Source: a virus
Taxonomy: Duplodnaviria > Caudoviricetes
Direction: 5' to 3' (one strand)
DNA: 64,000 nucleotides
IMG/VR virus record: IMGVR_UViG_3300028628_000004
Positions 1-16,092 of this stretch are shown here, piece by piece. Each line of letters opens with the position of its first letter. The first letter of the stretch is position 1. A model generated the notes under the pieces. The model saw only the letters and a program-made list of their open reading frames with translations. It was not told where the DNA came from and searched no databases. The position numbers and the translations under genes are program-made.

Positions 1-150
1 CATCTGGCGTGGAAGCGTGCCTGGGACCATGCTGACGAACTCAACGAGCAGCATAACGAGGACCATATCTCGTTCTGTGTAGTGAAATACTGCCAGCACT
101 ACTATGTCTTCGACAAGGTTGTGGCTCGCAAGCTGAAACTTATTCCTTGA
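1..150 (+). CDS. partial hypothetical protein (3' end, ...KVVARKLKLIP*)
   Basis: Open frame from base 1 to TGA 148-150, which overlaps the -35 of the next promoter. Confidence 0.6.
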   Translation, partial: HLAWKRAWDHADELNEQHNEDHISFCVVKYCQHYYVFDKVVARKLKLIP

Positions 151-195
151 CTTCCGTCGCCGTCTGATATACTCTACCCAACAAGAAAGAAACCC

Positions 196-420
196 ATGTC
201 CCCCTTCGTCCCCATTCTTCTCAACCGTGGCTTCTGCATGGGCGCTTCTGGGCGCTTCTTCAACTCCGATGCTCTCCGCACCGACAGCGGCATCACGGTC
301 GAGCTTCGTGACGAGGGGGCTGTGGTGTCTGTGGTGTTCAATGGCGACCTGAAGATGAACATGACCTTCCCCGACACCCCCGAGGGCGTGCAGGAGTTCC
401 GAGCGGTTCTTCCCGCTTGA
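196..420 (+). CDS. hypothetical early protein
   Basis: Own promoter (147-173), GAAAGAAA leader, GC3-biased codons. Confidence 0.75.
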   Translation: MSPFVPILLNRGFCMGASGRFFNSDALRTDSGITVELRDEGAVVSVVFNGDLKMNMTFPDTPEGVQEFRAVLPA

Positions 421-466
421 CTTTCGCCGCCAGCCCATACAATCAACCTCACAAGGAAACAAACAC

Positions 467-655
467 ATGAAGGTTCTCGCTGCTCTCTTTCTCATCGTCC
501 TCCTGCTGGGTGTCGTCTTCGGCATCTCCTGCTGGGTGATGATCGTCGGCTGGGGCGTCACTCCCGCTTCCTGGGGTGTCATCATCGGCGGCTTCCTGCT
601 CAACCTGTTCGTGATGACTGGTGTGGAACTCGTCAAGAGCGCCATCAAGAACTGA
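467..655 (+). CDS. small two-TM membrane protein
   Basis: Two hydrophobic segments; AAGGA RBS; own promoter. Confidence 0.75.
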   Translation: MKVLAALFLIVLLLGVVFGISCWVMIVGWGVTPASWGVIIGGFLLNLFVMTGVELVKSAIKN

Positions 656-658
656 ACC

Positions 659-919
659 ATGCGACACTACCTCATCCAAGTCGGCTCCCACACGCTCTTC
701 GTTGACCGCATCGACGGCTACGGGAAGATCGCTCCTGCCATGATGAGCCAAGAAGAGAAGCGGTTTCGTTTCCCCCTCTACCTGACCAATGGCACGCAGC
801 TTCATGTCGAGGGGACCGAGGCTCAGTGTGTCGAGGAACAGGCGATGCTGCTGGAGCGGCTGGAGAGCATCTCCGATCCCGAGACTGACGAGAGCCACCC
901 ACAAGGCATGAGCGGCTAA
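659..919 (+). CDS. hypothetical protein
   Basis: Tight operon packing, codon bias. Confidence 0.65.
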   Translation: MRHYLIQVGSHTLFVDRIDGYGKIAPAMMSQEEKRFRFPLYLTNGTQLHVEGTEAQCVEEQAMLLERLESISDPETDESHPQGMSG

Positions 920-922
920 GCC

Positions 923-1150
923 ATGCACTACCGCAAGCTGTATCTCTGGCGTGTCAAGGTCCGTGGCATGCTTTTCTGGTGCCATGAAGCGACCCAGGAG
1001 GCTGCTCTGGTCAATCTGGAGAAGCAGACCGATGCCCCCTTGCGCGAATGGTGCCTGGAGTGGAGCATCAAGAACCTTGACGGCTCCGACATTCCCGAGG
1101 ACGAGTTGATCCACATCTGCTTCGACGGGAAGCTGGACAAAGGGGATTGA
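923..1150 (+). CDS. hypothetical protein
   Basis: Tight operon packing. Confidence 0.65.
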   Translation: MHYRKLYLWRVKVRGMLFWCHEATQEAALVNLEKQTDAPLREWCLEWSIKNLDGSDIPEDELIHICFDGKLDKGD

Positions 1151-1151
1151 C

Positions 1152-1340
1152 ATGAACATTTTGTCTGGACTTCTCTGCGCCCTGCTCTCAATCCCCGCCT
1201 GTATCTTGGCAGCGGCTCTGATCGTCTTTCTGTTCGCCCTGGTGATTGCGATTACTTCTGCGATTCTTCTTGTTGCGCTGGCAGTGGGCATCGTAGCAGT
1301 TCCCATTGTCATTCTGTGGGTTGGGCTGACAACGGATTAG
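1152..1340 (+). CDS. very hydrophobic small membrane protein
   Basis: ~55 consecutive hydrophobic residues; abuts previous stop. Confidence 0.6.
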   Translation: MNILSGLLCALLSIPACILAAALIVFLFALVIAITSAILLVALAVGIVAVPIVILWVGLTTD

Positions 1341-1377
1341 CATTTGACATTGGCGGGAAGTCGCTACACTTACCAGC

Positions 1378-1632
1378 ATGAGCAACGACCTACCCCTCAT
1401 CCTCTCCAACGCCATCTTCTCGGGTGACATGCGCCCCCTGCGCGAGCGGGTCAGTGCTGACCCCTCGCTCAAGTCGCTTTCCTTCACCTACTCCTATACC
1501 CAGGAGTTAGGCAGCGATGGCTGCTGGGATCGCACCGTGACCGAAACTGCGACCATCGACAAGTTCCTGAAGGCTGGCATCAAGAACTCTGGCAACCGCT
1601 GCTACAACTACTATCTTGTAAAGGTTGGCTGA
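1378..1632 (+). CDS. hypothetical early protein (leaderless)
   Basis: ATG 7 nt after -10 TACACT. Confidence 0.75.
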   Translation: MSNDLPLILSNAIFSGDMRPLRERVSADPSLKSLSFTYSYTQELGSDGCWDRTVTETATIDKFLKAGIKNSGNRCYNYYLVKVG

Positions 1633-1635
1633 GTC

Positions 1636-1827
1636 ATGAGCGAACCAACCAACGAAACCAAGCTGTTTCATGTGCTGTGGAATGTCGCTCGCCAGGAGCT
1701 TTGCACGAAAGCCCACAAAAAGGACGCCAAGTGCATCGTGTTGGTCACGGAGCCTGACTTCAAGCAAGTTGCGGCTGCCCTACTCCAAAACGACGAGTTC
1801 ATGGAACTCATCAAAACTCTCTCTTGA
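1636..1827 (+). CDS. hypothetical protein
   Basis: Operon packing; stop inside next -35. Confidence 0.65.
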   Translation: MSEPTNETKLFHVLWNVARQELCTKAHKKDAKCIVLVTEPDFKQVAAALLQNDEFMELIKTLS

Positions 1828-1858
1828 CATTGGCTCCCCAACTCCTACAATGACCCAC

Positions 1859-2122
1859 ATGAGCAACATCAAGCCCCTCTCCGCTGGCACCCTCACCGAG
1901 TCGATGATCTGCGGCAAGCGTCTGCCCATCAAGATCCTGAGTGCCAAGCTCCCAGCCGATCCCCGCAGCTTCATGGGCAACGAGTACGAGTGCGCCTATG
2001 TCGGCACCGAGAAGGTCTGCCTGGACTTCGGGCAGAACTGGTACGCCAGCCCTGGCGACAAGTTCACGGTCCACCAGCGCAACATCGACTCTGCTGCCGA
2101 GTGGAAGGCAAAGGGCTATTGA
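1859..2122 (+). CDS. hypothetical early protein (leaderless, MSNIKPL...)
   Basis: ATG 7 nt after TACAAT; start shortened from track ORF 1670..2122. Confidence 0.75.
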   Translation: MSNIKPLSAGTLTESMICGKRLPIKILSAKLPADPRSFMGNEYECAYVGTEKVCLDFGQNWYASPGDKFTVHQRNIDSAAEWKAKGY

Positions 2123-2164
2123 CAATCGGTTGAAAGCCATATACTCCACACAACGAAAGAAACC

Positions 2165-2647
2165 ATGAGCAACAACCCCGAATCCTATGCCCGTCTTCCC
2201 GTCACCAAGCTCGCCAGCATGATCAACGGGCTGTATAAGCGTATCGTGCGTGTCAGCCACGCCAATACGCTGAATAAGCTGATGAGATACTACGAGGTCT
2301 ATCGCAAGTCATTCATGCTGCGCCTGCGAGTACGCCTGTTCGGCGGAACTCCCCTTGATTTCCACGCATGGGTCAAGGAAAGGAAGCAGGAGCATCGCAA
2401 CGCTGGCATCTTCGATACTACGATCTTTTGGCGCTGCTTCGATGACCGAACCTATGCCACGCTCATCGGCAACATGGAGAACCTCGTCAAGTATTCGGAC
2501 GAGTATGTCCTTCTGGCTGACACTGATCTGGCGTGCCTGACTGACGCAATCGCCAAGGGCGAGAAGCTCAAGGAAGCCGACGAGTATCTGGCGAAGATGG
2601 AAGCCGAGTATCCTGGCATCTACGACACGCTCACGAAGAATGATTGA
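2165..2647 (+). CDS. hypothetical early protein
   Basis: Own promoter, GAAAGAAACC leader. Confidence 0.75.
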   Translation: MSNNPESYARLPVTKLASMINGLYKRIVRVSHANTLNKLMRYYEVYRKSFMLRLRVRLFGGTPLDFHAWVKERKQEHRNAGIFDTTIFWRCFDDRTYATLIGNMENLVKYSDEYVLLADTDLACLTDAIAKGEKLKEADEYLAKMEAEYPGIYDTLTKND

Positions 2648-2677
2648 CATGCGGCTGAAAGTCGCTATACTGCGAGC

Positions 2678-2959
2678 ATGAACACCGAAGCCATCACCCG
2701 CCGAGTCGCTTCCGAGAAAACCGAGGACGGCGATCTGCTGCTCACCTGGGAAGTCCGAGCCAAGGGCTTCGATTCCGCCCGCAAGTGGATGCAGGAGGCG
2801 GATCGCTGGATCGAAACTTGGACCGCCTGTGGCGATGGCTGGCTCGTCGCTCGCTACTGCGTCCTCGTGGATGGCGCTGAAGTCGCCATAGAAGCCCACA
2901 ACGATGAATGGGCGAGCCGACAGCAAGAGATTGAGGATGCTGGACGGGGCTGCTGGTAA
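2678..2959 (+). CDS. hypothetical early protein (leaderless)
   Basis: ATG 6 nt after TATACT. Confidence 0.75.
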   Translation: MNTEAITRRVASEKTEDGDLLLTWEVRAKGFDSARKWMQEADRWIETWTACGDGWLVARYCVLVDGAEVAIEAHNDEWASRQQEIEDAGRGCW

Positions 2960-3000
2960 TAGTCGCTTGACATTCACTCCCAACCCATACAATCAAACCC

Positions 3001-3333
3001 ATGACCGACATTCAGACCTTTTCCCGCCTGACCCCCACCGAGAAGCGCATCGAAAGCTACGCCACCATGCCCAACGGCATGCGGCTGTCGATGGTCACTC
3101 ACAAGACCTTCGATGGGCTGCTCGTCACCCGCGTATCGGCTGCCCGAGTCGAGGACGGCTTCGTCAAGTATGTCATGGGACGGGACTACAATGTTGTCCT
3201 TGAGCGTGCGAAAAAGCGATGCACCAGCAAGAATGTTCAGGAGCAGCATGACTTCCACCTGAAGGACTTCCCGATCCTGATGGAAGCGGCGACCAAGTAT
3301 TACGGCGTGACCATCGTTCAGATTGGCGCTTGA
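3001..3333 (+). CDS. hypothetical early protein (leaderless)
   Basis: ATG 7 nt after TACAAT; ends GCT-TGA in next -35. Confidence 0.75.
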   Translation: MTDIQTFSRLTPTEKRIESYATMPNGMRLSMVTHKTFDGLLVTRVSAARVEDGFVKYVMGRDYNVVLERAKKRCTSKNVQEQHDFHLKDFPILMEAATKYYGVTIVQIGA

Positions 3334-3363
3334 CAACGGCTCCCGAGCCATACAATCAAGCCC

Positions 3364-3501
3364 ATGAGAAAAGAACTCGCTGACGCTGCCAAGAAGCTCG
3401 ACGCTGCTCGTCAGGCGCTTGCCGACAACCCCAAGAGCAACAAGGCGCTGGAAGCCTTGGTCGATGCCGAGCAGGCTTACCGAGAGGCTGCGAGTCGGTG
3501 A
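3364..3501 (+). CDS. 45-aa helical protein MRKELADAAKK... (leaderless)
   Basis: Below track cutoff; ATG 7 nt after TACAAT. Confidence 0.65.
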   Translation: MRKELADAAKKLDAARQALADNPKSNKALEALVDAEQAYREAASR

Positions 3502-3545
3502 GTCACACAGCAAGCGCGCCCGTCTCACACACCTGAAAGAAACTT

Positions 3546-3743
3546 ATGAGCAACAAGATCACCCGCTACACCTGCTCCGAGTGCGATGAGGGCAACGGCA
3601 TGTTTGCCGACATGGTTGAGAGTTCGTATGGCTCCTATGTCAGCATCTACGACCTCCAGAACAAGCTGAAGCATATGCTTGAGGATGCGTGTGATCCAGG
3701 CGAGAAGGACGCGATCAACAAGATGCTTGACTTGCTGAAATAG
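3546..3743 (+). CDS. small CxxC protein
   Basis: GAAAGAAA leader; CSEC motif. Confidence 0.65.
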   Translation: MSNKITRYTCSECDEGNGMFADMVESSYGSYVSIYDLQNKLKHMLEDACDPGEKDAINKMLDLLK

Positions 3744-3759
3744 GTGTTATGATTACACT

Positions 3760-4117
3760 CGTCAAGGGGCGGGGCAGAGTAGAAGCCGAAATGTCCGTAA
3801 GTCCCCTTGACATATGTTGGGTGCCAATAGCGAATAGAGGACGGAAGTCATGACTCCGCTCCTGAACTGGGGGTAAGAACCCCAGCCCGACACCAAACGA
3901 GAGACGAGTCCGGCGGACCAGAGGACTGGGACGTAATACGCCTGCACTCTCGCTAATAAAAAGCAGGACGTTATGGGGTGAGGACGCTAGTAGGAGAGGG
4001 GTAGTGATCCTCTTCGGGCGCGTCAAAGAACACGGGAGTCACTTCCCGTAAGCTTGTAGCCAACCAAGCCCATCCCAGTATCTCGAAACTCCTGGGCAAA
4101 TGCCTGGGAGTTTTTTG
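3760..4117 (+). ncRNA. unclassified ~350-nt structured RNA
   Basis: Promoter TTGACT 3727 / TATGAT 3748; no credible + ORF; several nested stems; ends in an intrinsic terminator. Confidence 0.75.
4086..4117 (+). terminator. intrinsic terminator
   Basis: AAACTCCTGGGC-AAAT-GCCTGGGAGTTT hairpin followed by T-tract. Confidence 0.8.
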
Positions 4118-4152
4118 TTTGACTTCTCCTGCCGCTTCATATACTCACACAC

Positions 4153-4386
4153 ATGAACATCGCGCTCGAAATCCCCCGATCTGTCACCGTCAGCGACATC
4201 GGCACCTACGATGGTGTCGAGTGGTTCCGCACCTTCGTTCCTGACCTGGGCTACGACACCTACAAGGCGCTGCCCCGCGTCGTGAGCTACAAGGGCAAGT
4301 CCTTTGTCAAGATGAGCTACAACACTGACAACGGCAGTGTGTCATACAAGGCATCAACCGCTTACGCGGTGGAGGCTTCCAAGTGA
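4153..4386 (+). CDS. hypothetical early protein (leaderless)
   Basis: ATG 7 nt after TATACT. Confidence 0.75.
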   Translation: MNIALEIPRSVTVSDIGTYDGVEWFRTFVPDLGYDTYKALPRVVSYKGKSFVKMSYNTDNGSVSYKASTAYAVEASK

Positions 4387-4646
4387 CCAACATTCTCAAA
4401 TCTGGCGACCAAGTAATCGCCTCGCGCACCGTCCTCAAGCCTGAGCATGTTCGCAATAACGGCGAGGTAATCCCCGAGCGGCTCAAGACCACCATTCGCG
4501 AGGGTAGGCTGCTTCATCGTGCCAAGGGTGGCTGGATCGTGGAATGGCGTGGAGCATCTCGTAGGAGCTACACCGAGCATTTCTTCGACCACGAGATTAC
4601 CAAGGTCGGTACTAACCCCCTGCTACTGGAAGCCAGCGATAAATAA
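4383..4646 (+). CDS. hypothetical protein
   Basis: GTGA overlap coupling. Confidence 0.6.
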   Translation: MTNILKSGDQVIASRTVLKPEHVRNNGEVIPERLKTTIREGRLLHRAKGGWIVEWRGASRRSYTEHFFDHEITKVGTNPLLLEASDK

Positions 4647-4701
4647 TAATGATTGCCTAACGCAATCTTTATCATATACTAACAGAACAAGGAGAACACA
4701 A

Positions 4702-4884
4702 GTGTCGAAGAGTTGGAAAATGGGCGCGGACAAGTTCGCTCGCGCAGCCAAGAAGCAAATCAAAGTCAAGCGCAACCACCTAGAGTGGGATGACGAGGAT
4801 GACAATGATGACTACTCTAGCAGCGTCAAGCGAAACACTGAGCCAGTCGAAAGCGACAGCCCAGAAGCCACTTCGCATCGCTGA
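4702..4884 (+). CDS. small basic/acidic protein MSKSWKMG...
   Basis: AGGAG RBS, GTG start, promoter at ~4653. Confidence 0.6.
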   Translation: MSKSWKMGADKFARAAKKQIKVKRNHLEWDDEDDNDDYSSSVKRNTEPVESDSPEATSHR

Positions 4885-5029
4885 TCCGTTCGCTGAAACT
4901 GACATCTTGGATGCAGTGGAAGTCGAGCCAATAGAGCTTGACAAGCGACTTCCGTTCTTCAAGCATCTTGACGGCATGGTGTCTCTCCGTAGGCAATGGA
5001 GCAAGTTCTGGCGCTATACAGACACTTGA
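4790..5029 (+). CDS. hypothetical protein overlapping previous ORF
   Basis: Stop falls in next -35, as typical for the array; start uncertain. Confidence 0.45.
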   Translation: MTRMTMMTTLAASSETLSQSKATAQKPLRIADPFAETDILDAVEVEPIELDKRLPFFKHLDGMVSLRRQWSKFWRYTDT

Positions 5030-5059
5030 CATTGGCTCCCTGTTGATATACTACGAAGC

Positions 5060-5194
5060 ATGAAGCACAAGCACGAAACCACCGACCAGCAAGCTGCCCG
5101 CGCCAATCGGCGCTGGATGCCTCCCCCGAAGCGCGTGTTCAAGGACAAGAACCGCTACGACCGCAAGGTGATGAAGCGGGAGTCGTTCGAGTGA
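5060..5194 (+). CDS. 44-aa basic peptide (…PKRVFKDKNRYDRK…), weak ArfA-like resemblance
   Basis: Leaderless start 7 nt after TATACT; below track cutoff. Confidence 0.6.
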   Translation: MKHKHETTDQQAARANRRWMPPPKRVFKDKNRYDRKVMKRESFE

Positions 5195-5340
5195 CCGTCC
5201 TCTACTTCCTCATCGGATTTCTGGCTCTCATCGGGCTGCTCGCCATCTGTTTCGTCATTCGTCGCTTTCTGGCGACCATCAAGTACATTCTTGATACGCC
5301 AAAGGTGATTGACGAGTTTATCAACGGCAAGAGGCACTGA
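5191..5340 (+). CDS. small single-TM protein
   Basis: GTGA overlap; hydrophobic N-terminus. Confidence 0.5.
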   Translation: MTVLYFLIGFLALIGLLAICFVIRRFLATIKYILDTPKVIDEFINGKRH

Positions 5341-5403
5341 CCAGACTCTCCTTGATTTTCGCTTCCTGCTTCATACAATCATCATAGAAAAGGAGTCTAA
5401 GCC

Positions 5404-5607
5404 ATGTTCATGGTCAAGAATACCCACAACGAGTTTTTGAGCGTCGAGCCGAGGAAGTTCACCAACGTTCCTGCTGTCGTGGCTCGCTTCGTCAATGAGA
5501 CGAGCATGCGGAGCTACATCAAGGACAACCATCCCGAGGTTGCTGCTGGCACCAAGCTGGAAATGGTCGATATGGACTCTGGTCGCATCACCGAGGTCGT
5601 GCTGTGA
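5404..5607 (+). CDS. hypothetical protein
   Basis: AAGGAG RBS; own promoter. Confidence 0.7.
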   Translation: MFMVKNTHNEFLSVEPRKFTNVPAVVARFVNETSMRSYIKDNHPEVAAGTKLEMVDMDSGRITEVVL

Positions 5608-5990
5608 GCCTGGAGAGCTACTGGAACCGAGTTCGCGGCTTTTTGACCCGACATGGTGGCGTACAGGATCAAAGTGACCATAACCGCACGCGGCAGGGCG
5701 AGCATTGGGAGCTTCCTGTAGTCGCTCATGGGCGAGCGGGAAAGCTGCTCATCAGTTTCCATCCCGAGTGCCAGAGTCGAGCGATTTACCAGTGCTTCGA
5801 CAGCGGCTTGGGGCGACACATTGCAATGGAAAATGACTTCCGTACCAATGGTGTGTCATACAAGGGTTTAGTCTTTTCTCCTTTTTCGTATAAATGGAAC
5901 CTGTTGGCGAGTCGCGATGTTGACCTGAACAGGTGGGAAAGTGCGCTGCTGGAAGTGGTGCCGAAGAAGTCGCTCGCTGCTGTCGCTTGA
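5604..5990 (+). CDS. hypothetical protein
   Basis: GTGA overlap; ends LAAVA in next -35. Confidence 0.65.
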   Translation: MSLESYWNRVRGFLTRHGGVQDQSDHNRTRQGEHWELPVVAHGRAGKLLISFHPECQSRAIYQCFDSGLGRHIAMENDFRTNGVSYKGLVFSPFSYKWNLLASRDVDLNRWESALLEVVPKKSLAAVA

Positions 5991-6020
5991 CTTCCCTCCC
6001 CGAGTGATACAATCACTTCC

Positions 6021-6239
6021 ATGAGAAACTCATACACCGTCAATGTCCCACCCACCCGTGACCAGGGTGCCAGTGCCTTCTACGCTGCTGCGAGCTATAT
6101 GCAGACCATGCGGAAGGATGCACTTGACACTTATAATCGCATGCGGGCGCACGATGGGCAACCTCCGTTAGAAAAAATGCCAAACGGAACCAAGTATATC
6201 CGCAACAAGCGGGCGACCATCGTTCACAACGCTCCTTGA
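6021..6239 (+). CDS. hypothetical early protein (leaderless)
   Basis: ATG 7 nt after TACAAT. Confidence 0.7.
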   Translation: MRNSYTVNVPPTRDQGASAFYAAASYMQTMRKDALDTYNRMRAHDGQPPLEKMPNGTKYIRNKRATIVHNAP

Positions 6240-6290
6240 CTTCCCCTTCACAATCCCTACAATACAAGCGTAAGGAAAGGAGAAAGCCAC

Positions 6291-6560
6291 ATGAGCATCG
6301 ACCGCATGAAAATCGCAAGCTGCTGGAAGCTGCGCCATAAGCCTCTGTGGCGTAGCCTGATACGAGCCTACATCGGCAACGAGAAGGGTGGCGGGCGGGT
6401 TGCTCTAAAAGACATGCCCAACGAAGTTGCGAAATACTGGAAGCACAACGATGATTATGTCATCGGTCCTGGGCTGAGTCACTACCTCAAACTGATGCTG
6501 ATGGACACCAACCTCGACCGACTCCTGACTCTGGGTGTCAAGATAAATCTGGAGGCTTAG
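6291..6560 (+). CDS. hypothetical protein
   Basis: AAGGAG RBS; own promoter. Confidence 0.65.
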   Translation: MSIDRMKIASCWKLRHKPLWRSLIRAYIGNEKGGGRVALKDMPNEVAKYWKHNDDYVIGPGLSHYLKLMLMDTNLDRLLTLGVKINLEA

Positions 6561-7306
6561 AAGGTGTCCAAGTCAGCCTGTGGCACTTCACGGTTCGCTG
6601 CCTGACTCTTGACAAGCTCCTGACCGATTGGGTTCTTGGGAGTGCCAGAGAAAAACTTATTGACTTTCTCAACCATGTAGTCAACGTCCAGCTTGCCTGG
6701 GTTGTTATCGACTACGATGCAGTTCTCACCGAATAGTTGGTGATACTTGGGTATATTGTCCTGAACCTGCTTCCAGATTTCTTCAACACTTCCCGAGCCA
6801 TGTGCAGGCAACTTGCGGTCACGCTTTGCATTGCGCTCCTGGGCGACATCCAGCGAGGTAGAAACAACAAGTATCATGGTGTCGTAGCCGAGGCTTTCAA
6901 GCTTCTCTTTGCGAATAACCATGTTCTTGTAGTTCTTGCCAGTGCCGTCTATAAGTATTGGAAGATAGGAGTTGAGGTAGTTTTTGAGGAACTGCTTGAT
7001 ACTCTCCAGTGCCTTATTGCGTATGTCAAGCTGCTTGGTGCGTAAATCCTTCTCTTCTGGACTTGGCGCGTTCTCTGGTGGAATGACTTGGGGCAGATTA
7101 GCGACTTGGAGCTTCTTGACGAATAGCTTGTCGCTATCAACGACCTTTGGCTGTGGATAGACATTATCCATGAGCTTCTTGACAACGTAGCTCTTGCCGC
7201 TGCCAGGACCGCCACATAATAAGATGGCTCGTAGTTGTCCTGCATCTGTAATAGCCTCATCAACAAGTCCAAGGGCTTCCAGCATCTTTGCGCGAATAGG
7301 GTCCAT
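6557..7306 (-). CDS. P-loop kinase, zeta-toxin/AAA_33-like
   Basis: Walker A GGPGSGKS, VDSD, LIDGTG, AQERNAKRDR; AGGAG RBS and TATAAATA upstream. Confidence 0.85.
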   Translation of the reverse strand: MDPIRAKMLEALGLVDEAITDAGQLRAILLCGGPGSGKSYVVKKLMDNVYPQPKVVDSDKLFVKKLQVANLPQVIPPENAPSPEEKDLRTKQLDIRNKALESIKQFLKNYLNSYLPILIDGTGKNYKNMVIRKEKLESLGYDTMILVVSTSLDVAQERNAKRDRKLPAHGSGSVEEIWKQVQDNIPKYHQLFGENCIVVDNNPGKLDVDYMVEKVNKFFSGTPKNPIGQELVKSQAANREVPQADLDTF

Positions 7307-9208: not shown

Positions 9209-9239
9209 CTTCTCTTCCCAGTCGCTATACTCCACTCAT

Positions 9240-9374
9240 ATGAGCAAGATCAAGACCTTCCTCAACCTCTTCTGGGCGACCCACTTCATGGACGGACTGA
9301 AGGCGCAGGGCAAGACCTCCTGGGTTTCCTATGACAGCATCCTTGAGATGCATGTTGTGGAGTGGGTGGACTGA
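9240..9374 (+). CDS. 44-aa hypothetical protein
   Basis: ATG 8 nt after TATACT. Confidence 0.6.
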   Translation: MSKIKTFLNLFWATHFMDGLKAQGKTSWVSYDSILEMHVVEWVD

Positions 9375-9376
9375 CC

Positions 9377-9778
9377 ATGCCTACCTTCTACGACACTTTC
9401 ATGGTGAACGGCGGGCGTGTGTTCGCCACGCATGTGCCGATCAACGCCTTCGTCACTGACGGCAAGGTCAAGCCGACCAACTCCTACTACGGCAACTCCC
9501 AGGTATATCGCCCGACCTACGAGGCGGCTGTGATCCCGAAGGGGACTCCCCTGCTGGCTTGCCCTGGTGGCATGTGGTTCGTGATGGGCGGCAAGCTGCT
9601 GGGGTTCTCGCTGGATGATCGTGACCCTGGCGAAGTGGGTGCTTTCGAGAAGCATCACGACCCGACCAATGCTCGGCTCATGCGCCTCTACGAGAAGGGT
9701 GATGTCCAGTTCATCGATGAGGGACTGCCAAGCGACTTCCAGCGCATGTACGACGAATGGCTCAAGTTAAGGGCTTGA
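9377..9778 (+). CDS. hypothetical protein
   Basis: Follows previous stop; codon bias. Confidence 0.7.
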   Translation: MPTFYDTFMVNGGRVFATHVPINAFVTDGKVKPTNSYYGNSQVYRPTYEAAVIPKGTPLLACPGGMWFVMGGKLLGFSLDDRDPGEVGAFEKHHDPTNARLMRLYEKGDVQFIDEGLPSDFQRMYDEWLKLRA

Positions 9779-9830
9779 CATTCGCTGCCACCCGATACAC
9801 TCAACCCAACAACCAACCAAGGAACCTCCC

Positions 9831-10040
9831 ATGCCCAGCAACATCAAGTCCGTTCTGCGTGTGTTCGATGCCGCTGGCATCCCCGTTGTCACCCAGAAGC
9901 GCGAGGGCGTGACCCTGCGCCGTGGCGACCGGATCGAAGTGAACAGCAACGGCGTCTGGGTGTTCGAGGGCAAGTTCCTGTCCATGGATGCGGCGGTCCA
10001 GTCGCGGCTGCTCGCCGGGAAGCGTGTGGTGCCTGCGTGA
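9831..10040 (+). CDS. hypothetical protein
   Basis: AAGGA RBS; own promoter. Confidence 0.7.
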   Translation: MPSNIKSVLRVFDAAGIPVVTQKREGVTLRRGDRIEVNSNGVWVFEGKFLSMDAAVQSRLLAGKRVVPA

Positions 10041-10213
10041 GCGGCTTCATCATTCCCATTCCGGGGCTGAATAAACCCTTTGTCGTTCCTTCGATTCCAG
10101 ACCTCGACATGACCTGGGGCAAGGGTGACGGCAAGATCAAGAACGAGAAGCGGCTCAAGCGGCAAGCCGAGAAGAAGCGGAAGAAGCTTCACCGCAAGCA
10201 AGGGAGACACTAA
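10037..10213 (+). CDS. 58-aa protein with very basic C-terminus
   Basis: GTGA overlap. Confidence 0.55.
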   Translation: MSGFIIPIPGLNKPFVVPSIPDLDMTWGKGDGKIKNEKRLKRQAEKKRKKLHRKQGRH

Positions 10214-10342
10214 TGTCTGACATCCATGACCGTGAGCGGCTGGCTACTTGACGGCAAGCTGATAGATGCGGTCAATATAAACACCATACGAGCAGAATAG
10301 TGGCTTGATTTATTTTCGGCTACTCGTATCATAAATAGAGGT

Positions 10343-10840
10343 ATGGGTAGCCTTGTCTGCATCAACGAGGAAAACTGCTACAAGGCGCTCCGAGCCGTTG
10401 AGAGGCGCTTCCAGCGTTCATCGGCTCCCGAGCGGCTCAAGCAAGTCGCCAGAACCATCAATCCTTTAGTGTTTGTATGTGGTAGAAGGGGAAATACCCT
10501 TGGACAAGCCGTAGGAGTAAGCCTGCGGTCTTTTGACTCATTACGCACAAGATACAACTTGCGTGAAAGCGTCCACCCCAGCACCAAGATTGGCAACCGA
10601 CGCTACTTCATGATCATCGAAATCAACCCACTTGCGTTCAGCAAGCTGCGTATGACACGCTGGAAGTATCTGTGTCGTGTTTTTGGACACGAATATGCCC
10701 ATTTAATAGACACAGTGTATAGAAAGCAGGCATGGGGCGGAACCACCGACTCAGACCCCGAAACTGACCACGATGAGCATTGGCAGAAGATAAGTCTCTG
10801 GTGCGGTGGCAATACGGACCCTATCATCAGCCCAAGTTAG
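10343..10840 (+). CDS. SprT-like zinc metalloprotease
   Basis: HEYAH plus downstream H..HW...C.G. Confidence 0.75.
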   Translation: MGSLVCINEENCYKALRAVERRFQRSSAPERLKQVARTINPLVFVCGRRGNTLGQAVGVSLRSFDSLRTRYNLRESVHPSTKIGNRRYFMIIEINPLAFSKLRMTRWKYLCRVFGHEYAHLIDTVYRKQAWGGTTDSDPETDHDEHWQKISLWCGGNTDPIISPS

Positions 10841-10876
10841 GCATTGACTTCCTCTGGGAGTCTCTATACTGCTGGC

Positions 10877-11305
10877 ATGCCCTACATACTCGAAGCCTAC
10901 GCCCCCGTTGAAGTGATCCTCAAGCGCAAGGATCCTGATAGTCGTGCATGGGTCGCTCGTCCAGAAACCCCCGACAATGAGTTTTGGATCGGCACCATGC
11001 ATGTGTATGACACAGAGGAAGCCTGCATCCGAGGCAATGCCCATACGCTGGAAAGCGGCATCAAGCAGATGGAATACGAAGCCAAGCAGAACATGAAGCG
11101 TGTGGAAGCGGCTAAAAAGCTGCTCCACAGCGTCTCACCGGAGGCTCGCATTAAGAAGCTGGAAGGGCTGCTCATTGCGCTGCATCACAACCTCAACACT
11201 ATCAAGTATTCTTGTGGAGAAGATGGTTGCACGGCTGGCAAGAACCTTGCCCACGAGTGTATGGACTGGATCGAAAGCCACAACATTCCCAACCTTGACA
11301 CGTAG
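10877..11305 (+). CDS. hypothetical early protein (leaderless)
   Basis: ATG 6 nt after TATACT. Confidence 0.7.
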   Translation: MPYILEAYAPVEVILKRKDPDSRAWVARPETPDNEFWIGTMHVYDTEEACIRGNAHTLESGIKQMEYEAKQNMKRVEAAKKLLHSVSPEARIKKLEGLLIALHHNLNTIKYSCGEDGCTAGKNLAHECMDWIESHNIPNLDT

Positions 11306-11328
11306 GCGGAAGGCATTAGGATACTGAC

Positions 11329-11511
11329 ATGACCCACAACATCCTCAACGCTCTGTGTAGCGGCTTGACTACCACTTGTGACAAGAAGTCACTCAAGGAG
11401 CTGCTTCTGTCCACTGGTGGCTGGACTATGGCACAGGGGCGATCCTGCGACATTTGCACCAAGCATCTTGCGGCTGGGGTCTATAAGGTGTGGTTGGAAG
11501 CGAGGCGGTAA
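11329..11511 (+). CDS. hypothetical early protein (leaderless)
   Basis: ATG 6 nt after TAGGAT. Confidence 0.65.
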   Translation: MTHNILNALCSGLTTTCDKKSLKELLLSTGGWTMAQGRSCDICTKHLAAGVYKVWLEARR

Positions 11512-11551
11512 AGTCGCTTGACTTCCTCTGGAAGTCTCTATACTCACGCTC

Positions 11552-11773
11552 ATGAACATCAACGAAATCCCCACCGAGCAACTGGAAGCCGAAATCAAGC
11601 GGCGGAATGCTGCCAAGAGCCTCAAGTCGCTCTACCCCAAGAACCTCAAGGGCGCTAAGGCGCTGCTGGGCGCGATCCTTGAGTCCTACGAAAACAGCGA
11701 TCCCTACGAGCGGAGCATCGACTACGACCTGATTGAGTATGCCAACGAGTATCTGGCGGAGAAGGTGAAGTGA
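11552..11773 (+). CDS. hypothetical early protein (leaderless)
   Basis: ATG 7 nt after TATACT. Confidence 0.7.
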   Translation: MNINEIPTEQLEAEIKRRNAAKSLKSLYPKNLKGAKALLGAILESYENSDPYERSIDYDLIEYANEYLAEKVK

Positions 11774-11988
11774 CCGACCTACCTGCCGACTTCCAGAAAA
11801 ACATTGACACCATCAACAGCATGTCCCGAGAGGAAATCGGGCGGCTGATGCGCTTTCATCCCTGCGGCGAGCCTCACCCCTACTTCGACAGCACGCTTCC
11901 CTACTGGAAGTACCTGAACGCTCGCTTTCAGGAGCTTGGCGGCTGGGACGCTGCTTTGAGCAAGCATATCGGCTGGGATAGGGCTTGA
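11770..11988 (+). CDS. hypothetical protein
   Basis: GTGA overlap; RF.ELGG....SK.IGW. Confidence 0.65.
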   Translation: MTDLPADFQKNIDTINSMSREEIGRLMRFHPCGEPHPYFDSTLPYWKYLNARFQELGGWDAALSKHIGWDRA

Positions 11989-12017
11989 CATTGCTTCCCA
12001 ACGCCTACAATACCAAC

Positions 12018-12236
12018 ATGAACATCAACGCCCTTGCCTCCCTCCTGAAGATCACTCAGGACAGCGATGTAGATGCTCGTGTGTCACTCGGCTGGGTGAC
12101 GCTTGCCCACATTGAGGAAGAGGACGGCTTCTGGTTCGTTCGCCTCAAGGGCGAGTCGGCACCGATCAGCATGCGCGGCTCCAAGAGTGTCGAAGAGGCT
12201 GTCGAGGCGCTGGTCAAGTACCTGACGCCCGAATAG
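12018..12236 (+). CDS. hypothetical early protein (leaderless)
   Basis: ATG 6 nt after TACAAT. Confidence 0.7.
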   Translation: MNINALASLLKITQDSDVDARVSLGWVTLAHIEEEDGFWFVRLKGESAPISMRGSKSVEEAVEALVKYLTPE

Positions 12237-12274
12237 TCACTTGACAGCGGCTCCCCGCTTGATACGATACGAGC

Positions 12275-12589
12275 ATGAAGAACGGCATCAACCTCTGGCT
12301 GGACGACAAGCGCAAGATGCCCGAGGGCTACGATCTGCATGTGTTCACCGCACAGGCTGCTATCGCTGCTCTGGAGACTGGCACGGTCGAGAAGGTGAGC
12401 CTGGATCACGATCTTGGTCCCGAGTGGGAGACTGGCAACGGCTACATGGTCGCCAAGTGGATTGAGGAAGCGGCTTACCTGGGCAAGATCCCGAAGCTGG
12501 AGTGGCATATCCACAGCCAGAATAGCGTCGGGGTGGCGAGCATGAAGGCTGCTCTGACCAACGCTGACCGCTACTGGGAAGGGGCTTGA
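12275..12589 (+). CDS. cyclic-phosphate-processing receiver-domain protein (cREC)
   Basis: LWLDDKR.P, VSLDHDLG, GY.VAKWIEE, HSQN.VG motifs. Confidence 0.85.
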   Translation: MKNGINLWLDDKRKMPEGYDLHVFTAQAAIAALETGTVEKVSLDHDLGPEWETGNGYMVAKWIEEAAYLGKIPKLEWHIHSQNSVGVASMKAALTNADRYWEGA

Positions 12590-12590
12590 C

Positions 12591-12806
12591 ATGCTCGAAG
12601 ACGCTCCCATCCTGAGAAAGCAACTTGAAGAGATTGCCGATGTCTTCAACGGGGCTGACATGTCGGGCTATATGAAGCTCTACCAACTACTTGGAGCCAT
12701 GCATGAGAAGCATATGGCTGGCGACAAGGATGCTGGGAAGATCCTACTGATGGTCACACGCTTCCACTCTGTCATCAAGGCGGCGAAGAATCAGAAAGTC
12801 GCTTGA
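12591..12806 (+). CDS. hypothetical protein
   Basis: Ends QKVA in next -35. Confidence 0.6.
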   Translation: MLEDAPILRKQLEEIADVFNGADMSGYMKLYQLLGAMHEKHMAGDKDAGKILLMVTRFHSVIKAAKNQKVA

Positions 12807-12836
12807 CATTCGCTCCCTGCTCCTATACTCACACAC

Positions 12837-13022
12837 ATGAGCATCAAGAACCTCTCCAAGTCTGTCCCCGCTGACCTCAAGCGGGAAATCCGCAAGGAGT
12901 TCAACGGACCCAACCACGCTGCTGTCTATGGCAAGCTCGAAGCCTTCCTGGGTGAAGAGTTCTGCGTCTACGAGGACGGCACCATCTATGCGGTTGCCAA
13001 GAGCATCGCTGGAGTCTGCTAA
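12837..13022 (+). CDS. hypothetical protein, copy 1 of duplicated cassette
   Basis: Near-identical to 14524..14709; leaderless. Confidence 0.8.
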   Translation: MSIKNLSKSVPADLKREIRKEFNGPNHAAVYGKLEAFLGEEFCVYEDGTIYAVAKSIAGVC

Positions 13023-13023
13023 C

Positions 13024-13239
13024 ATGGCAACGATCAGCATCAACGCCCACAAGCGCATCAACTGGACGCTGGAGGACAACAACGGCAAGGTTGCCCTGGA
13101 AGCCACTGACTCCGCTGGCACCTTCGATGGCTTCAACATCTCCGCCAGGGAGTCTGGTAGCGTGGGACCGACTTGGCTGAGCCTGGAGGAAGCCAAGAGT
13201 CTGCGGGATTGGCTCAACAAGGCGCTTGACAACGGCTGA
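13024..13239 (+). CDS. hypothetical protein (MATISINAHK...)
   Basis: Starts right after previous stop. Confidence 0.65.
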   Translation: MATISINAHKRINWTLEDNNGKVALEATDSAGTFDGFNISARESGSVGPTWLSLEEAKSLRDWLNKALDNG

Positions 13240-13258
13240 AAGGCTCTATACTACGAGC

Positions 13259-13576
13259 ATGACAACAGTATTTCATGTCACTCCCAAGAGAAACATTCCG
13301 AGTATCTTGAAAGGTGGATTGAAACCGAGAGTCGGTCCACGGAGCAAGTCAGCAAAAGAAAAAATACCCCGTGTCTATGTTTTCCCTGATATGGTTTCCC
13401 TAGAAGATGCTCTGTCAAACTGGCTGGGCGATGAGTTTGTCCAGCGGCTAAGTATCTTGCAACTGGAAGTCCCTGACGAGTGGCTTGTAAGTGACACTGT
13501 GCGATGGGAAGCAACCATTGATAGGATAATCCCACCCACCCATATCAAGGTACTGGTGGAAGATATTGACGCTTGA
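13259..13576 (+). CDS. ADP-ribosyltransferase-fold protein, Tpt1/KptA C-domain-like
   Basis: FHVT..NIPSILKGGLKP and RVYVF motifs; leaderless. Confidence 0.65.
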   Translation: MTTVFHVTPKRNIPSILKGGLKPRVGPRSKSAKEKIPRVYVFPDMVSLEDALSNWLGDEFVQRLSILQLEVPDEWLVSDTVRWEATIDRIIPPTHIKVLVEDIDA

Positions 13577-13605
13577 CATTCGCTCCCACCTGATATACTA
13601 CGAGC

Positions 13606-13944
13606 ATGAGCAACGAAGTCATCTCTGCCTCCCTGATGAGCATCCTGACCGAGCATGTGAACGCTCACGGCAAGGTCGATGACGCTGCCATCTGTCGGTC
13701 GATTGCCGACTACATCAACGGCATTCCCTTCACCATCTACTACGCTGATGCTCTCTACGACTTCATTCGGGAGTACGGCGAGGACTACGACGAGTCCTAC
13801 CTGGGTCGGGATGCTGACGGTGAGAAGCAGTACATCATCTTCAACAAGGAAACCAACTGGCACGACCGGATCCGCAAGGAACTGATTGCCTTGGGCTACT
13901 ACAAGGCATACGACGAGTGGGCTGCCGAGCAGAAAGTCGCTTGA
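13606..13944 (+). CDS. hypothetical early protein (leaderless)
   Basis: ATG 6 nt after TATACT; ends QKVA. Confidence 0.75.
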   Translation: MSNEVISASLMSILTEHVNAHGKVDDAAICRSIADYINGIPFTIYYADALYDFIREYGEDYDESYLGRDADGEKQYIIFNKETNWHDRIRKELIALGYYKAYDEWAAEQKVA

Positions 13945-13989
13945 CAGCGGCTCCCATTGCCTATACTAAGCCCAACAAGAAAGAAACAC

Positions 13990-14265
13990 ATGAGCAACTC
14001 CCCTTCCCATCCGTGTGCGATGTGTCTGGTCGAAGGGCGGGCAGTCCTCGCTACCGACGAGTTCAATGGCATGCATCTGTGTGCTGATTGCACCGAATGG
14101 GAGCGGAAGAACGCTGACCCGTATGAAGCGGCTGAACAGCGTGAAGCGCAGCGGGAAGCGGTCGAGGCTGGGCATGTATCAGAGGCACGGCGACTGGTCG
14201 AGAAGCTCGACACCATCGTGCGAGACAGCATTCCCGAGGACATCTGGATCTGGATTCGCGCTTGA
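13990..14265 (+). CDS. small Zn-finger protein (CxxC...CxxC)
   Basis: CAMC/CADC; GAAAGAAA leader. Confidence 0.65.
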   Translation: MSNSPSHPCAMCLVEGRAVLATDEFNGMHLCADCTEWERKNADPYEAAEQREAQREAVEAGHVSEARRLVEKLDTIVRDSIPEDIWIWIRA

Positions 14266-14295
14266 CTTCCTCCGTAAGCCACTACAATCAAGCAC

Positions 14296-14493
14296 ATGAA
14301 GAACGACAGCATCTCCGTTGCTCTCTGCGGCATCACCAAAAAGTATGGCGGCGAGGGCTGGTTCGCTGGTGTCACTGCATATGGTCGGGATCGTGTAGTC
14401 CTCTACTACAAGGATAAGAAGAACGTCCCACATGGCAACGGGCGATTCAGCAAGTTCGCTGGAGTCCATGTGAAGTGGCAGAAAGTCGCTTGA
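14296..14493 (+). CDS. hypothetical early protein flanked by 38-bp direct repeats
   Basis: Leaderless; ends QKVA. Confidence 0.7.
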   Translation: MKNDSISVALCGITKKYGGEGWFAGVTAYGRDRVVLYYKDKKNVPHGNGRFSKFAGVHVKWQKVA

Positions 14494-14523
14494 CTTCCTC
14501 TGGAAGCCACTACAATCAAGCAC

Positions 14524-14709
14524 ATGAGCATCAGCAACTACGCCAAGTCCGTCCCCTCTGACCTCAAGCGTGAGGTTCGCAAGGAGTTCAACGGACCCAA
14601 CCACGCCGCTGTCTATGAGAAGCTGGAAGCCTTCCTGGGCGAAGAGTTCTGCGTCTACGAGGACGGCACCATCTATGCGGTCGCCAAGCGGATCGCTGGA
14701 GTCGCCTAA
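14524..14709 (+). CDS. hypothetical protein, copy 2 of duplicated cassette
   Basis: Near-identical to 12837..13022. Confidence 0.8.
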   Translation: MSISNYAKSVPSDLKREVRKEFNGPNHAAVYEKLEAFLGEEFCVYEDGTIYAVAKRIAGVA

Positions 14710-14768
14710 TAGGGGCTTGACAGTGGCTTGAATCTGATTATACTCTGCTCATCAACCAAGGACAACCA

Positions 14769-15077
14769 ATGACCGACTTCAACGCTGCTCTCGACGCCTT
14801 CACCAATGCCTACCAGAAGGTTCTGGACGCTCAGAACGGCAGCTTCAAGCACTACGGCAAGGTCAAGCTGATGGTCGGCTCCAAGTTCATCCGTGTGGTC
14901 CGCACCAACGGCAACGACGAGGGCGGCTCAGTCGCTTGCTTCGTCTGCAAGGCGACTGGAGGCATCTTCAAGGCTGCTGGCTGGGCGGCTCCTGCGAAGG
15001 GCGAGCGGGCGAGCATCTTCAACGCTGAGAGCTATGCGAAGATGGACGCTTTCGGTGGGTGGCTCTATAGCCGCTGA
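14769..15077 (+). CDS. conserved phage hypothetical protein
   Basis: G.KFIRVV...SV.CFV...TG.IFKAA.W.APAKG.R pattern recalled from T4-like phages. Confidence 0.75.
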   Translation: MTDFNAALDAFTNAYQKVLDAQNGSFKHYGKVKLMVGSKFIRVVRTNGNDEGGSVACFVCKATGGIFKAAGWAAPAKGERASIFNAESYAKMDAFGGWLYSR

Positions 15078-15119
15078 ATAGGGGCTTGACAGAGGCTCCC
15101 GACGCATATACTCTCCAGC

Positions 15120-15269
15120 ATGACCCACCAAGAGAAAGCAAGCGGCTGGAAGTCCTACGATGCCATCGACTGCAAGAGCGCCCGCAAGTCGCTCCGGTGG
15201 TACAAGAAGAAGGCGCACAAGAAGCTGCGCCAGGAAGTCAAAAAGGATTTGACTCTGGACGCTGACTGA
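15120..15269 (+). CDS. 49-aa basic protein (leaderless)
   Basis: ATG 7 nt after TATACT; WYKKKAHKKLRQ. Confidence 0.6.
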   Translation: MTHQEKASGWKSYDAIDCKSARKSLRWYKKKAHKKLRQEVKKDLTLDAD

Positions 15270-15299
15270 TATACTCTGAGCATCACCCAAGGACAAGAC

Positions 15300-15614
15300 A
15301 TGCCGACCCCCGAAGAGAAGCAGATCGCCACCGCCATCCGTGACCAGATCGGCACCAACACGCTGATGTGCATCGGGGCGCACGAGTTGGGCATCGTCCC
15401 AGCGACCGACAAGATCCTGGGTGGGCTGGCGTTCAAGCTGGGGCGCAACCCGAAGATGAAGCAGGGTGGCAATGTGATGATCACGCTCCTGCCGAGTGAC
15501 ACCTACCGAGTCTGCATCATGTCGAGCCGAGGCAAGATGATGCTGGAGCAGGAGGATGTGTATTGCGACCAGTTGGGCGGTCCTGAAGGCATCATCGAAC
15601 AGGTGACGGGCTAA
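15300..15614 (+). CDS. conserved phage hypothetical protein
   Basis: IA.AI.DQIG...SDTY.V...DVYCDQL...IE..TG. Confidence 0.75.
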   Translation: MPTPEEKQIATAIRDQIGTNTLMCIGAHELGIVPATDKILGGLAFKLGRNPKMKQGGNVMITLLPSDTYRVCIMSSRGKMMLEQEDVYCDQLGGPEGIIEQVTG

Positions 15615-15696
15615 GGGGCTAAGAGGGGCTGGGAAGGGGGCTTGACAACGCCAGGAAGGCGTTATACTCTACCCATCAACCAAGGACAAGCCTCCC

Positions 15697-16041
15697 ATGC
15701 GTATCTCCAACATCAACTCCAACCTCGCCTTCAACACCGTCATGGCTCGCTTCGCGCCCAATCACGGCAAGCGGGCGGTGCGCTACGAGCCGGACGGCAA
15801 TGTGACCCTGATGGTGCTGGACGAGTGCGACCACTGCGGCGATGAGTGCGAGGGTGCCAACTCCGTGGTGCTGGTCAAGCCCGCTAAGTTCGTGATGGAG
15901 CGGCTGGAGTCGCTGGTGCGGCTGGGCAATCTGGTCAAGACGGAAGTGTGCCAGGAAAGCGGCTGCAACGATGATGGGGATTGCGTCTGCCCCTCCTGCT
16001 ACTCCGAGGGGCTGGAAGAGGCTCGTCGGATGGGGGCTTGA
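15697..16041 (+). CDS. Cys-rich hypothetical protein
   Basis: AAGGA RBS; several CxxC. Confidence 0.7.
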   Translation: MRISNINSNLAFNTVMARFAPNHGKRAVRYEPDGNVTLMVLDECDHCGDECEGANSVVLVKPAKFVMERLESLVRLGNLVKTEVCQESGCNDDGDCVCPSCYSEGLEEARRMGA

Positions 16042-16065
16042 TAGGGGCTTGATAGGGGCTTGACA
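16033..16065 (+). repeat. 3x tandem GGGGCTTGA[TC]A promoter-junction repeat
   Basis: ggggcttgata ggggcttgata ggggcttgaca. Confidence 0.85.
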
Positions 16066-16092
16066 TGGGATTGGAGTTGCTATAATAGAGGC

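Follow-up and report, generated by a model that had tools for sequence, protein, structure and literature searches.

What reads a dense array of phage promoters whose -35 and -10 boxes are those of a primary bacterial sigma factor, but which stand 15 or 16 bp apart in place of the usual 17? The question is raised by the window analyzed here, 64,000 nucleotides of a virus of the Caudoviricetes that correspond to bases 5482-69481 of a linear, 101,570-bp IMG/VR record (IMGVR_UViG_3300028628_000004, hereafter G000; about 44% complete according to CheckV). An initial annotation of the window had described 38 promoters between positions 147 and 16086, 29 with a spacer of 15 bp (N15), nine with 16 bp (N16) and none with 17 bp (N17). 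Spacer length is usually held to be among the most constant features of bacterial promoters, and in the housekeeping promoters of Escherichia coli 15 bp is a poor spacer. The departure from N17 is real, specific, and conserved in three diverged phages; with regard to the reader, the explanation that we favor, with a probability of roughly one half, is that the RNA polymerase of the host, carrying its primary sigma factor, recognizes these promoters directly.

A count of the pattern TTGACW-N15-TAnnnT over the window gave 39 matches, all 39 on the + strand, against 1.40 +/- 1.28 in 100 shuffles, and 29 of them fall within 147-16086. A canonical scan with spacers of 16 to 18 bp, run over positions 1-17000, added nine N16 sites on the + strand (1824, 2644, 4653, 5352, 6236, 10305, 11295, 12241, and 14717) and yielded no convincing + strand N17 site. 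The 38 promoters of the earlier count, including the sites quoted at 147 and 8230, were thus recovered exactly, as was the lack of N17 in the array: the N17 form of the pattern matches seven times in the window, six of these being second readings of N15 sites (TATACTct, TATAATgt, TATATTct) and the seventh a lone match at 54147. Across the entire record, TTGAC and TAnnnT on the + strand are separated by N15 in 51 cases, by N16 in 15, and by N17 in 12, the last class consisting nearly entirely of re-readings of other sites, and the - strand is flat. The mode is therefore 15, with 16 as the second value and 17 present only as re-readings, where primary-sigma promoters have 17 +/- 1 with a mode of 17. 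Shifting the -10 box two bases downstream in order to restore N17 is possible only for the TATACTct-like sites (6/39); TACAATca, TATACTac, and TATAATaa do not permit it, and the distance to the ATG agrees with N15. An anchoring that makes no use of the -35 box, requiring a hexamer like the -10 box with an ATG 6-7 nt beyond it and an open reading frame (ORF) of at least 40 codons, retrieved 42 sites, in which TTGAC stands at N15 in 24 and at N16 in five (29/42 in total) and at none of the other spacers between 12 and 21. Since these anchors were chosen without selection for a -35 box, the short-spacer result is independent of picking sites by that box.

The same geometry is found in two relatives of this phage. 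G001 (IMGVR_UViG_3300037851_000141; 331,849 bp, 92% complete) has a syntenic virion block and 26 proteins in common with G000, at 24-50% identity, and the 68-kb G130 (IMGVR_UViG_3300033559_000026) has 37 proteins in common with G000 and G001, at 30-76% identity, so that identities across the three span 24-76%. Genes of the T4 plan in G001 include those for a gp6-like baseplate wedge protein, UvsW, a family-B DNA polymerase (with approximately 31% identity to those of T4 type), a gp41-like helicase, topoisomerase II, and a gp55-like late sigma factor (phrog_234, E = 2e-25). Judged by their proteins, G000 is a very distant T4-like phage, and the three belong to one deep T4-like clade of uncultured giant phages. 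Counts of strong-box sites, given as N15/N16/N17, are 46/14/1 in G000, 60/48/3 in G001, and 21/25/1 in G130, the three N17 sites of G001 being no more than the chance level at neighboring spacers. The two short classes are distributed differently within the clade: N15 with TATAAT predominates in the terminal array of G001 (282-332 kb) and N16 with TAGAAT or TAAAAT in its tRNA and middle region (162-278 kb), while in G130 both are mixed inside one array. As a control, the same counting was applied to 71 other phage loci, located through homologs of the RNA ligase encoded within these arrays; summed, they gave 8 N15, 16 N16, 215 N17, and 16 N18 sites, as compared with 18/6/0/0 in the equivalent region of G001. 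A cultured T4-like Desulfovibrio phage (7757) also peaks at N17, and the published early promoters of T4-type phages, organized in promoter-early stem-loop (PeSL) cassettes, are all N17 (PMC4122927). Because controls treated by the same method recover N17, the departure towards N15 and N16 is real, specific, and conserved.

Pattern scans of viral sequences gave mostly chance-level singletons; beyond G001, several matches were found only in G130 and in G129 (IMGVR_UViG_3300036781_000186, L289-L291), a barely related giant-phage fragment with three weak protein links to G001. G129 carries about 45 tandem early promoters of the form TTGACA-N17 or N16-TAWTAT, often with TA before TAWTAT, and its start codons lie about 9 nt past the box, so that leaders would be only 2-4 nt long. 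It was rejected as a fourth short-spacer phage, as the invariant TAWTAT box places its spacers at N17/N16, which is canonical. The closest relatives of the RNA ligase (L400, L401) have no promoter array in the stretches examined and are uninformative.

The boxes themselves are those of a primary sigma factor. In the array, the -35 box is TTGAC(A/T) at 29 + 6 sites, and TTGATT or TTGCCT at three more; the -10 hexamers of the N15 sites are TATACT (18), TACAAT (9), TATAAT (7), and TATGAT (5). At 28 of 54 sites in G000 an ATG follows the second box by 6-7 nt, while the others are followed by a 17-30-nt leader that contains an AAGGAA-type ribosome-binding site. From the short distance to the ATG, TAYAMT can be identified as the -10 element, with TTGACW lying at about -33 to -28, and the ATG positions imply a start roughly 7 nt after the -10 box. 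The initial annotation had also proposed a conserved extension upstream of TTGAC, and with it GCTTGA-N17 as the possible real element. A 'gc' does precede TTGAC in the N15 sites of G000 (C in 80% and G in 59% at these two positions), but the same two bases carry no information in G001; TTGAC(A/T) is the conserved core common to both phages, and GCTTGA-N17 was discarded because its prefix is not conserved in G001. Other flanking features include A-rich, UP-like tracts 5' of TTGACW in G001 and a TGn motif that precedes the -10 box in about 20-30% of N15 sites.

The promoters of the array are given below; N15 entries derive from the TTGACW-N15-TAnnnT count, N16 entries from the canonical 16-18 scan, and 'leaderless' refers to the position of the ATG.

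147-16086, + strand: early-gene array of 38 promoters (29 N15, 9 N16) before small ORFs and one putative non-coding RNA
147-173, + strand: N15, TTGACT/TATACT
417-443, + strand: N15, TTGACT/TACAAT
1344-1370, + strand: N15, leaderless ATG
1824-1851, + strand: N16, TTGACA/TACAAT
2119-2145, + strand: N15
2644-2671, + strand: N16, TTGACA/TATACT
2967-2993, + strand: N15, leaderless ATG
3330-3356, + strand: N15, leaderless ATG
3727-3753, + strand: N15, before an ORF-free stretch closed by the sole strong terminator (4085-4114)
4119-4145, + strand: N15, leaderless ATG
4653-4680, + strand: N16, weaker -35, TTGCCT/TATACT
5026-5052, + strand: N15, leaderless ATG
5352-5379, + strand: N16, weaker -35, TTGATT/TACAAT
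5987-6013, + strand: N15, leaderless ATG
6236-6263, + strand: N16, TTGACT/TACAAT
7339-7365, + strand: N15
7870-7896, + strand: N15, leaderless ATG
8230-8256, + strand: N15, TTGACA/TATAAT, leaderless ATG
8702-8728, + strand: N15, leaderless ATG
9205-9231, + strand: N15
9775-9801, + strand: N15, AAGGAA-type leader
10305-10332, + strand: N16, weaker -35, TTGATT/TATCAT
10844-10870, + strand: N15, with dyad GACTTCCnnnGGGAGTC
11295-11322, + strand: N16, TTGACA/TAGGAT
11518-11544, + strand: N15, with perfect dyad GACTTCCtctGGAAGTC
11985-12011, + strand: N15, leaderless ATG
12241-12268, + strand: N16, TTGACA/TACGAT
12803-12829, + strand: N15, leaderless ATG
13226-13252, + strand: N15, leaderless ATG
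13573-13599, + strand: N15, leaderless ATG
13941-13967, + strand: N15, with leader
14262-14288, + strand: N15, leaderless ATG
14490-14516, + strand: N15, leaderless ATG
14717-14744, + strand: N16, TTGACA/TATACT
15086-15112, + strand: N15, leaderless ATG
15249-15275, + strand: N15, with leader
15642-15668, + strand: N15, with leader
16060-16086, + strand: N15, last in the GC-rich array

One unit of the array, 3727-4117, consists of an N15 promoter, about 350 nt without an ORF, and the array's only strong intrinsic terminator (4085-4114, with a 13-bp stem), and has the look of an early non-coding RNA, as the initial annotation had already flagged. Before the promoters, terminator-like sites show no enrichment (20 versus 14.2 +/- 4.2 expected), the one at 4085-4114 being the single strong case. 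A dyad, GACTTCCnnnGGAAGTC, covers the -35 box and spacer in four to six TTGACT-type promoters (10846-10862, 11520-11536, 14264-14280, and 14492-14508, with weaker copies at 1346 and 18155) and has 11 matches at no more than three mismatches versus 2.6 expected; it could be the operator of a dimeric regulator, or merely the trace of a duplicated promoter cassette.

Promoters of the same geometry continue downstream of the array, about 11 in number where some 15 had been announced:

17542-17568, + strand: N15, TTGACT/TAGAAT, in the AT-richer part
18153-18180, + strand: N16; the next ORF of at least 120 aa is a NADAR-domain gene (18428-18934), about 250 nt downstream
19955-19981, + strand: N15, before the gene of the CCA-adding enzyme (19990-21183)
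21192-21218, + strand: N15, TTGACT/TAGAAT
23658-23684, + strand: N15, TTGACT/TAGAAT
27828: weak site
28868-28894, + strand: N15, TTGACT/TATAAT
29905-29932, + strand: N16, before an RNA-ligase-domain gene (29951-30568)
30573-30600, + strand: N16, before a metallophosphoesterase gene (30607-31365)
32951-32977, + strand: N15, before the gene of a T4 Rnl1-type RNA ligase; leaderless ATG at 32984
39107-39134, + strand: N16 promoter-like site, TTGATT/TATAAT

Among the downstream genes that had been named, those for the CCA-adding enzyme and RNA ligase do follow such promoters; the VWA gene at 45779 has none of the N15/N16 type, and the ClpS and PNK genes were not confirmed as such.

The early arrays are also set apart by base composition. 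GC content is 52-55% in the array of G000 (window positions 1-16100) versus 34-44% in 16100-64000, 51-55% versus 41-47% in G130 (array in L292-L293), and 40-43% versus 31-38% in G001 (array in L053-L054), and in G000 the GC content of third codon positions is 0.76 in a sample of early genes as compared with 0.33 in a virion gene of 2189 aa. Early genes may be tuned to the tRNA pool of a GC-rich host, with later genes relying on the phage's own large tRNA set. In G001, the tRNA cluster is adjoined by a TnpB/Cas12f-like gene (L047:1346-2956:+), and the family-B DNA polymerase contains an intein (L044:6444-9611:+).

A search for sigma factors and other transcription factors encoded by the phages revealed no primary-type sigma in the sequences examined, although a novel or virion-delivered factor would be beyond its reach. 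Sigma70_r2 has no match in G000, G130, or G129, and the only, weak, match of Sigma70_r4 in G000 falls in the ORF of an HNH endonuclease. AsiA (PF09010) was not found in G000, which is about 44% complete, and no genome-wide search was aimed at MotA-like or novel factors. The sigma factors of G001 are limited to the gp55-like late sigma and one of ECF type. By knowledge of T4, the former would serve late promoters that have a -10 element alone, while ECF sigma factors recognize different boxes. The ECF sigma of G001 was rejected as the reader of the array, as the boxes are of the wrong type for it (TTGACW/TAYAMT, and neither GGAAC/CGT nor TAAA/GCCGATAA, as for ECF or group-3 sigma factors), and as tblastn found no counterpart in G000 or G130; no sigma-like gene conserved in all three phages was found. 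About 580 nt downstream of the ECF-type gene (L049:13385-13927:+) lies an N15 promoter (234509 in G001), behind which is encoded a 173-aa protein with weak similarity to Mor activators and to helix-turn-helix (HTH) domains (L049:14563-15084:+). G001 also encodes a 111-aa protein with an HTH resembling that of sigma region 4 (L044:12430-12765:+), and the arrays of G000 and G001 have two small early proteins in common.

Whether any bacteria use short spacers was examined through counts of perfect TTGACW-Nx-TATAAT sites in sampled bacterial genomes, the samples being small, and N15-only scans covered 60-120 genomes per phylum with a reversed pattern as control, a control which the Desulfospira case discussed below shows to be too lenient, as it underestimates background. 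The preferred spacer differs among the lineages sampled: it is 17 or 16 in Chloroflexota and 16 in Planctomycetota, a few of which also have frequent N15. Within the Chloroflexota, G069 and G020 are sharply N17, while G005 (9/15), G014 (15/24), and G063 (14/22) have their mode at N16; G046, a further genome of this sample that is marked unpublished, underlies none of the statements made here. Planctomycetota with a mode at N16 include, as N15/N16/N17, a member of the Thermoguttaceae (G131, 5/42/38), one of the Brocadiaceae (G236, 1/22/10), G152 (12/21/17), and G142 (9/22/11 among the matches listed). N15-rich members of the phylum are G166 (43/180, against 0 in the control) and G187 (N15/N16/N17 = 8/8/5), the share of N15 among the sites of these two being about one quarter to one third. 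As bacterial lineages with shorter spacers exist, it is plausible that the geometry is a trait of the host, and the Planctomycetota come closest among the lineages sampled.

The host was also sought directly. A pattern scan of 185,579 species genomes gave matches that are taxonomically scattered and mostly off gene starts, and Patescibacteria showed no signal, with about 68 N15 matches versus about 53 in the control. Desulfobacterota provided leads, in that a Desulfovibrio phage is among the best matches to the polymerase, perfect sites in Desulfospira number 4/8/6/1/2 for N14/15/16/17/18, and N15 matches in the phylum amount to about 257 versus about 88 in the control. Intergenic sites with no more than one mismatch in Desulfospira (1.6 Mb), however, number 13 for N15, 13 for N16, and 21 for N17, and the phylum was rejected because this mode is N17 and Desulfovibrio phage 7757 likewise peaks at N17.

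The early genes of T4-type phages are read by the unmodified sigma-70 polymerase of the host. The T4-like plan of the clade, the consensus boxes, and the lack in G001 of a canonical promoter from which a phage factor could first be expressed make reading by the primary sigma of the host the most economical explanation. The promoters would then be the early and delayed-early set of a T4-like giant phage, transcribed by the host holoenzyme with its primary (sigma-70/sigma-A type) sigma and without help from the phage. Sigma region 4 would contact TTGAC(A/T) and region 2 TAYAMT, and transcription would start about 7 nt past the -10 box, in approximately half of the cases at the A of the start codon, producing leaderless mRNA. 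The fixed spacer of 15-16 bp would reflect the separation at which regions 2 and 4 operate in the host lineage's holoenzyme, 1-2 bp shorter than in E. coli. A host sigma with altered geometry, one of two options raised by the initial annotation, is the reading best supported by the differences among lineages and by the presence of the trait in three diverged phages. Several observations weigh against it. No sampled bacterial genome has N15 at least as frequent as N16 with N17 near zero, and the closest Planctomycetota still have 15-40% N17; N15-only scans remained at control level in the samples of Chloroflexota, Verrucomicrobiota, Patescibacteria, Pseudomonadota, Deinococcota, Bacteroidota, and Acidobacteriota; and a cross-phylum study of 2025 found the 17-bp spacer to be predominant in 49 species (PMC12641261). 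A search of the literature returned nothing specific on lineages with optima of 15-16 bp, on promoters of Planctomycetes, or on lineage-dependent spacer preference.

In the weighing of rival readings (ALTERNATIVES), the other option of the initial annotation, a phage sigma or activator that re-registers region 4, received a lower weight. In its present form, it supposes that a protein of the phage, delivered with its DNA or produced from the first transcript, binds the host polymerase and shifts region 4 by about 2 bp towards region 2, in an appropriation similar to that by T4 AsiA/MotA, such that N15-16 promoters are favored and those of the host lose. This is rather unlikely in our judgment, even though the spacer distribution of the phages is fitted by no sampled bacterial genome, the geometry tracks the clade despite a large change in GC content (34% in G001 versus 55% in the G000 early array), the arrays of G000 and G001 have two small early proteins in common, and G000 is only about 44% complete. 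No AsiA homolog was found in G000 and no conserved sigma-like gene in the three phages, and the boxes follow the normal sigma-70 consensus, while known appropriation systems swap the -35 box for another sequence. In addition, since G001 is 92% complete and has only three N17 sites, at chance level, it offers no canonical promoter for first expression, and a phage-made factor would itself need an N15/N16 promoter or would have to be packaged in the virion and injected. A related and equally doubtful possibility is that of a private channel, in which either a virion-delivered or first-expressed phage protein or an unusual host holoenzyme brings regions 2 and 4 closer together and places host promoters of 16-17 bp at a disadvantage; host shut-off would then be achieved by promoter geometry and not by promoter sequence.

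DNA topology offers a different route to a short spacer, if the sigma of the host had its optimum at 16 bp and the extra twist of injected DNA, which is linear and relaxed, shifted the best spacer one base shorter, with N15 serving the first array and N16 later genes. The arrangement of G001, with N15 and TATAAT in the terminal array and N16 with TAGAAT or TAAAAT in the tRNA and middle region, as well as the existence of bacterial lineages with a mode at N16, would agree with this, and relaxed DNA has reportedly been found to favor shorter spacers in E. coli. Yet T4, T5, T7, and the 71 control loci also inject linear DNA and have N17 in hosts whose optimum is N17, N15 and N16 are mixed within one array of G130, and the size of the topological effect is uncertain, all of which leaves this reading improbable. 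Still less probable is an alternative host sigma, of group 2 or 3, with a naturally short spacer in the manner of sigma-28 or sigma-B. Several group-3 sigma factors do use spacers of 13-15 bp. A structural paper on sigma-B of Staphylococcus aureus likewise describes short group-3 spacers (PMC11156646). The boxes of the arrays, on the other hand, are those of primary sigma factors and not TAAA/GCCGATAA or GTTTAA/GGGTAT, and a lytic phage with all its early genes under a conditional sigma would be unusual. Very little credence is given to the idea that TTGACW is the site of an activator or repressor and that the promoters work through their -10 box alone, in part as extended TGn promoters: TGn occurs at the above-mentioned 20-30% of N15 sites, and the dyad GACTTCCnnnGGAAGTC includes the -35 box at four to six promoters, but TTGAC is present at nearly all sites and the dyad at few, most sites lack TGn, and TTGACW is the exact -35 consensus of primary sigma factors, preceded in G001 by A-rich, UP-like tracts.

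Three giant phages thus carry otherwise perfect sigma-70 boxes at 15-16 bp, some 40 to 100 pairs in each genome, and shun 17, while phages of comparable kind keep strictly to 17. If these promoters are read by the host polymerase, some bacterial lineage would have a different distance between the sigma domains of its holoenzyme, with consequences for promoter prediction, for the prediction of hosts of uncultured phages, and for moving genetic parts from one species to another; should a phage factor be required, it would represent a new mode of capture of the host polymerase. The lineage-dependent spacer preference seen in bacteria is a useful side result.

Comparison with known systems places these arrays near, but not within, established classes. 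T4 middle promoters, which depend on a MotA box at -30 and on remodeling by AsiA, similarly have an upstream element nearer to the -10 box than a normal -35, and the cGCTTGAC of G000 bears a superficial likeness to the Mot-box core (tGCTTtA). The Mot box, TGCTTtA, lies 12 +/- 1 bp from the -10 box, in place of a -35, whereas here GCTTGA stands at 17 bp and TTGACW at 15-16 bp; moreover, G001 does not keep the GC prefix, and the search for AsiA found none in G000 (about 44% complete), MotA not having been searched for there. A closer parallel is provided by the PeSL cassettes described in the T4-type phages RB49/phi1, T4/PST, and KVP40/nt-1 (Arbiol 2010, PMC2839356; Comeau 2014, PMC4122927). As in PeSL, dozens of near-consensus early promoters of sigma-70 type each precede a small gene without assigned function in cassette-like repeats, and these cluster, with small and variable ORFs, in hyperplastic regions of a T4-like genome. 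They differ from published PeSL in their N15 or N16 spacer, where PeSL have N17, in the lack of enrichment of stem-loops or terminators before the promoters, in that about half of the genes are leaderless while those of PeSL have a Shine-Dalgarno sequence, and in an array far richer in GC than the rest of the genome. Given the missing stem-loop, the spacer of 15-16 bp, and the leaderless half, the arrays are not strict members of the PeSL class, though they are PeSL-like in their working. With the canonical primary-sigma promoter, TTGACA-N17(+/-1)-TATAAT, they have in common both hexamers, the A-rich upstream tract (in G001), an occasional TGn, and an implied start about 7 nt after the -10 box; they have the sequence of such promoters but not their spacing, which is 15 bp in the majority, 16 bp in a minority, and never 17.

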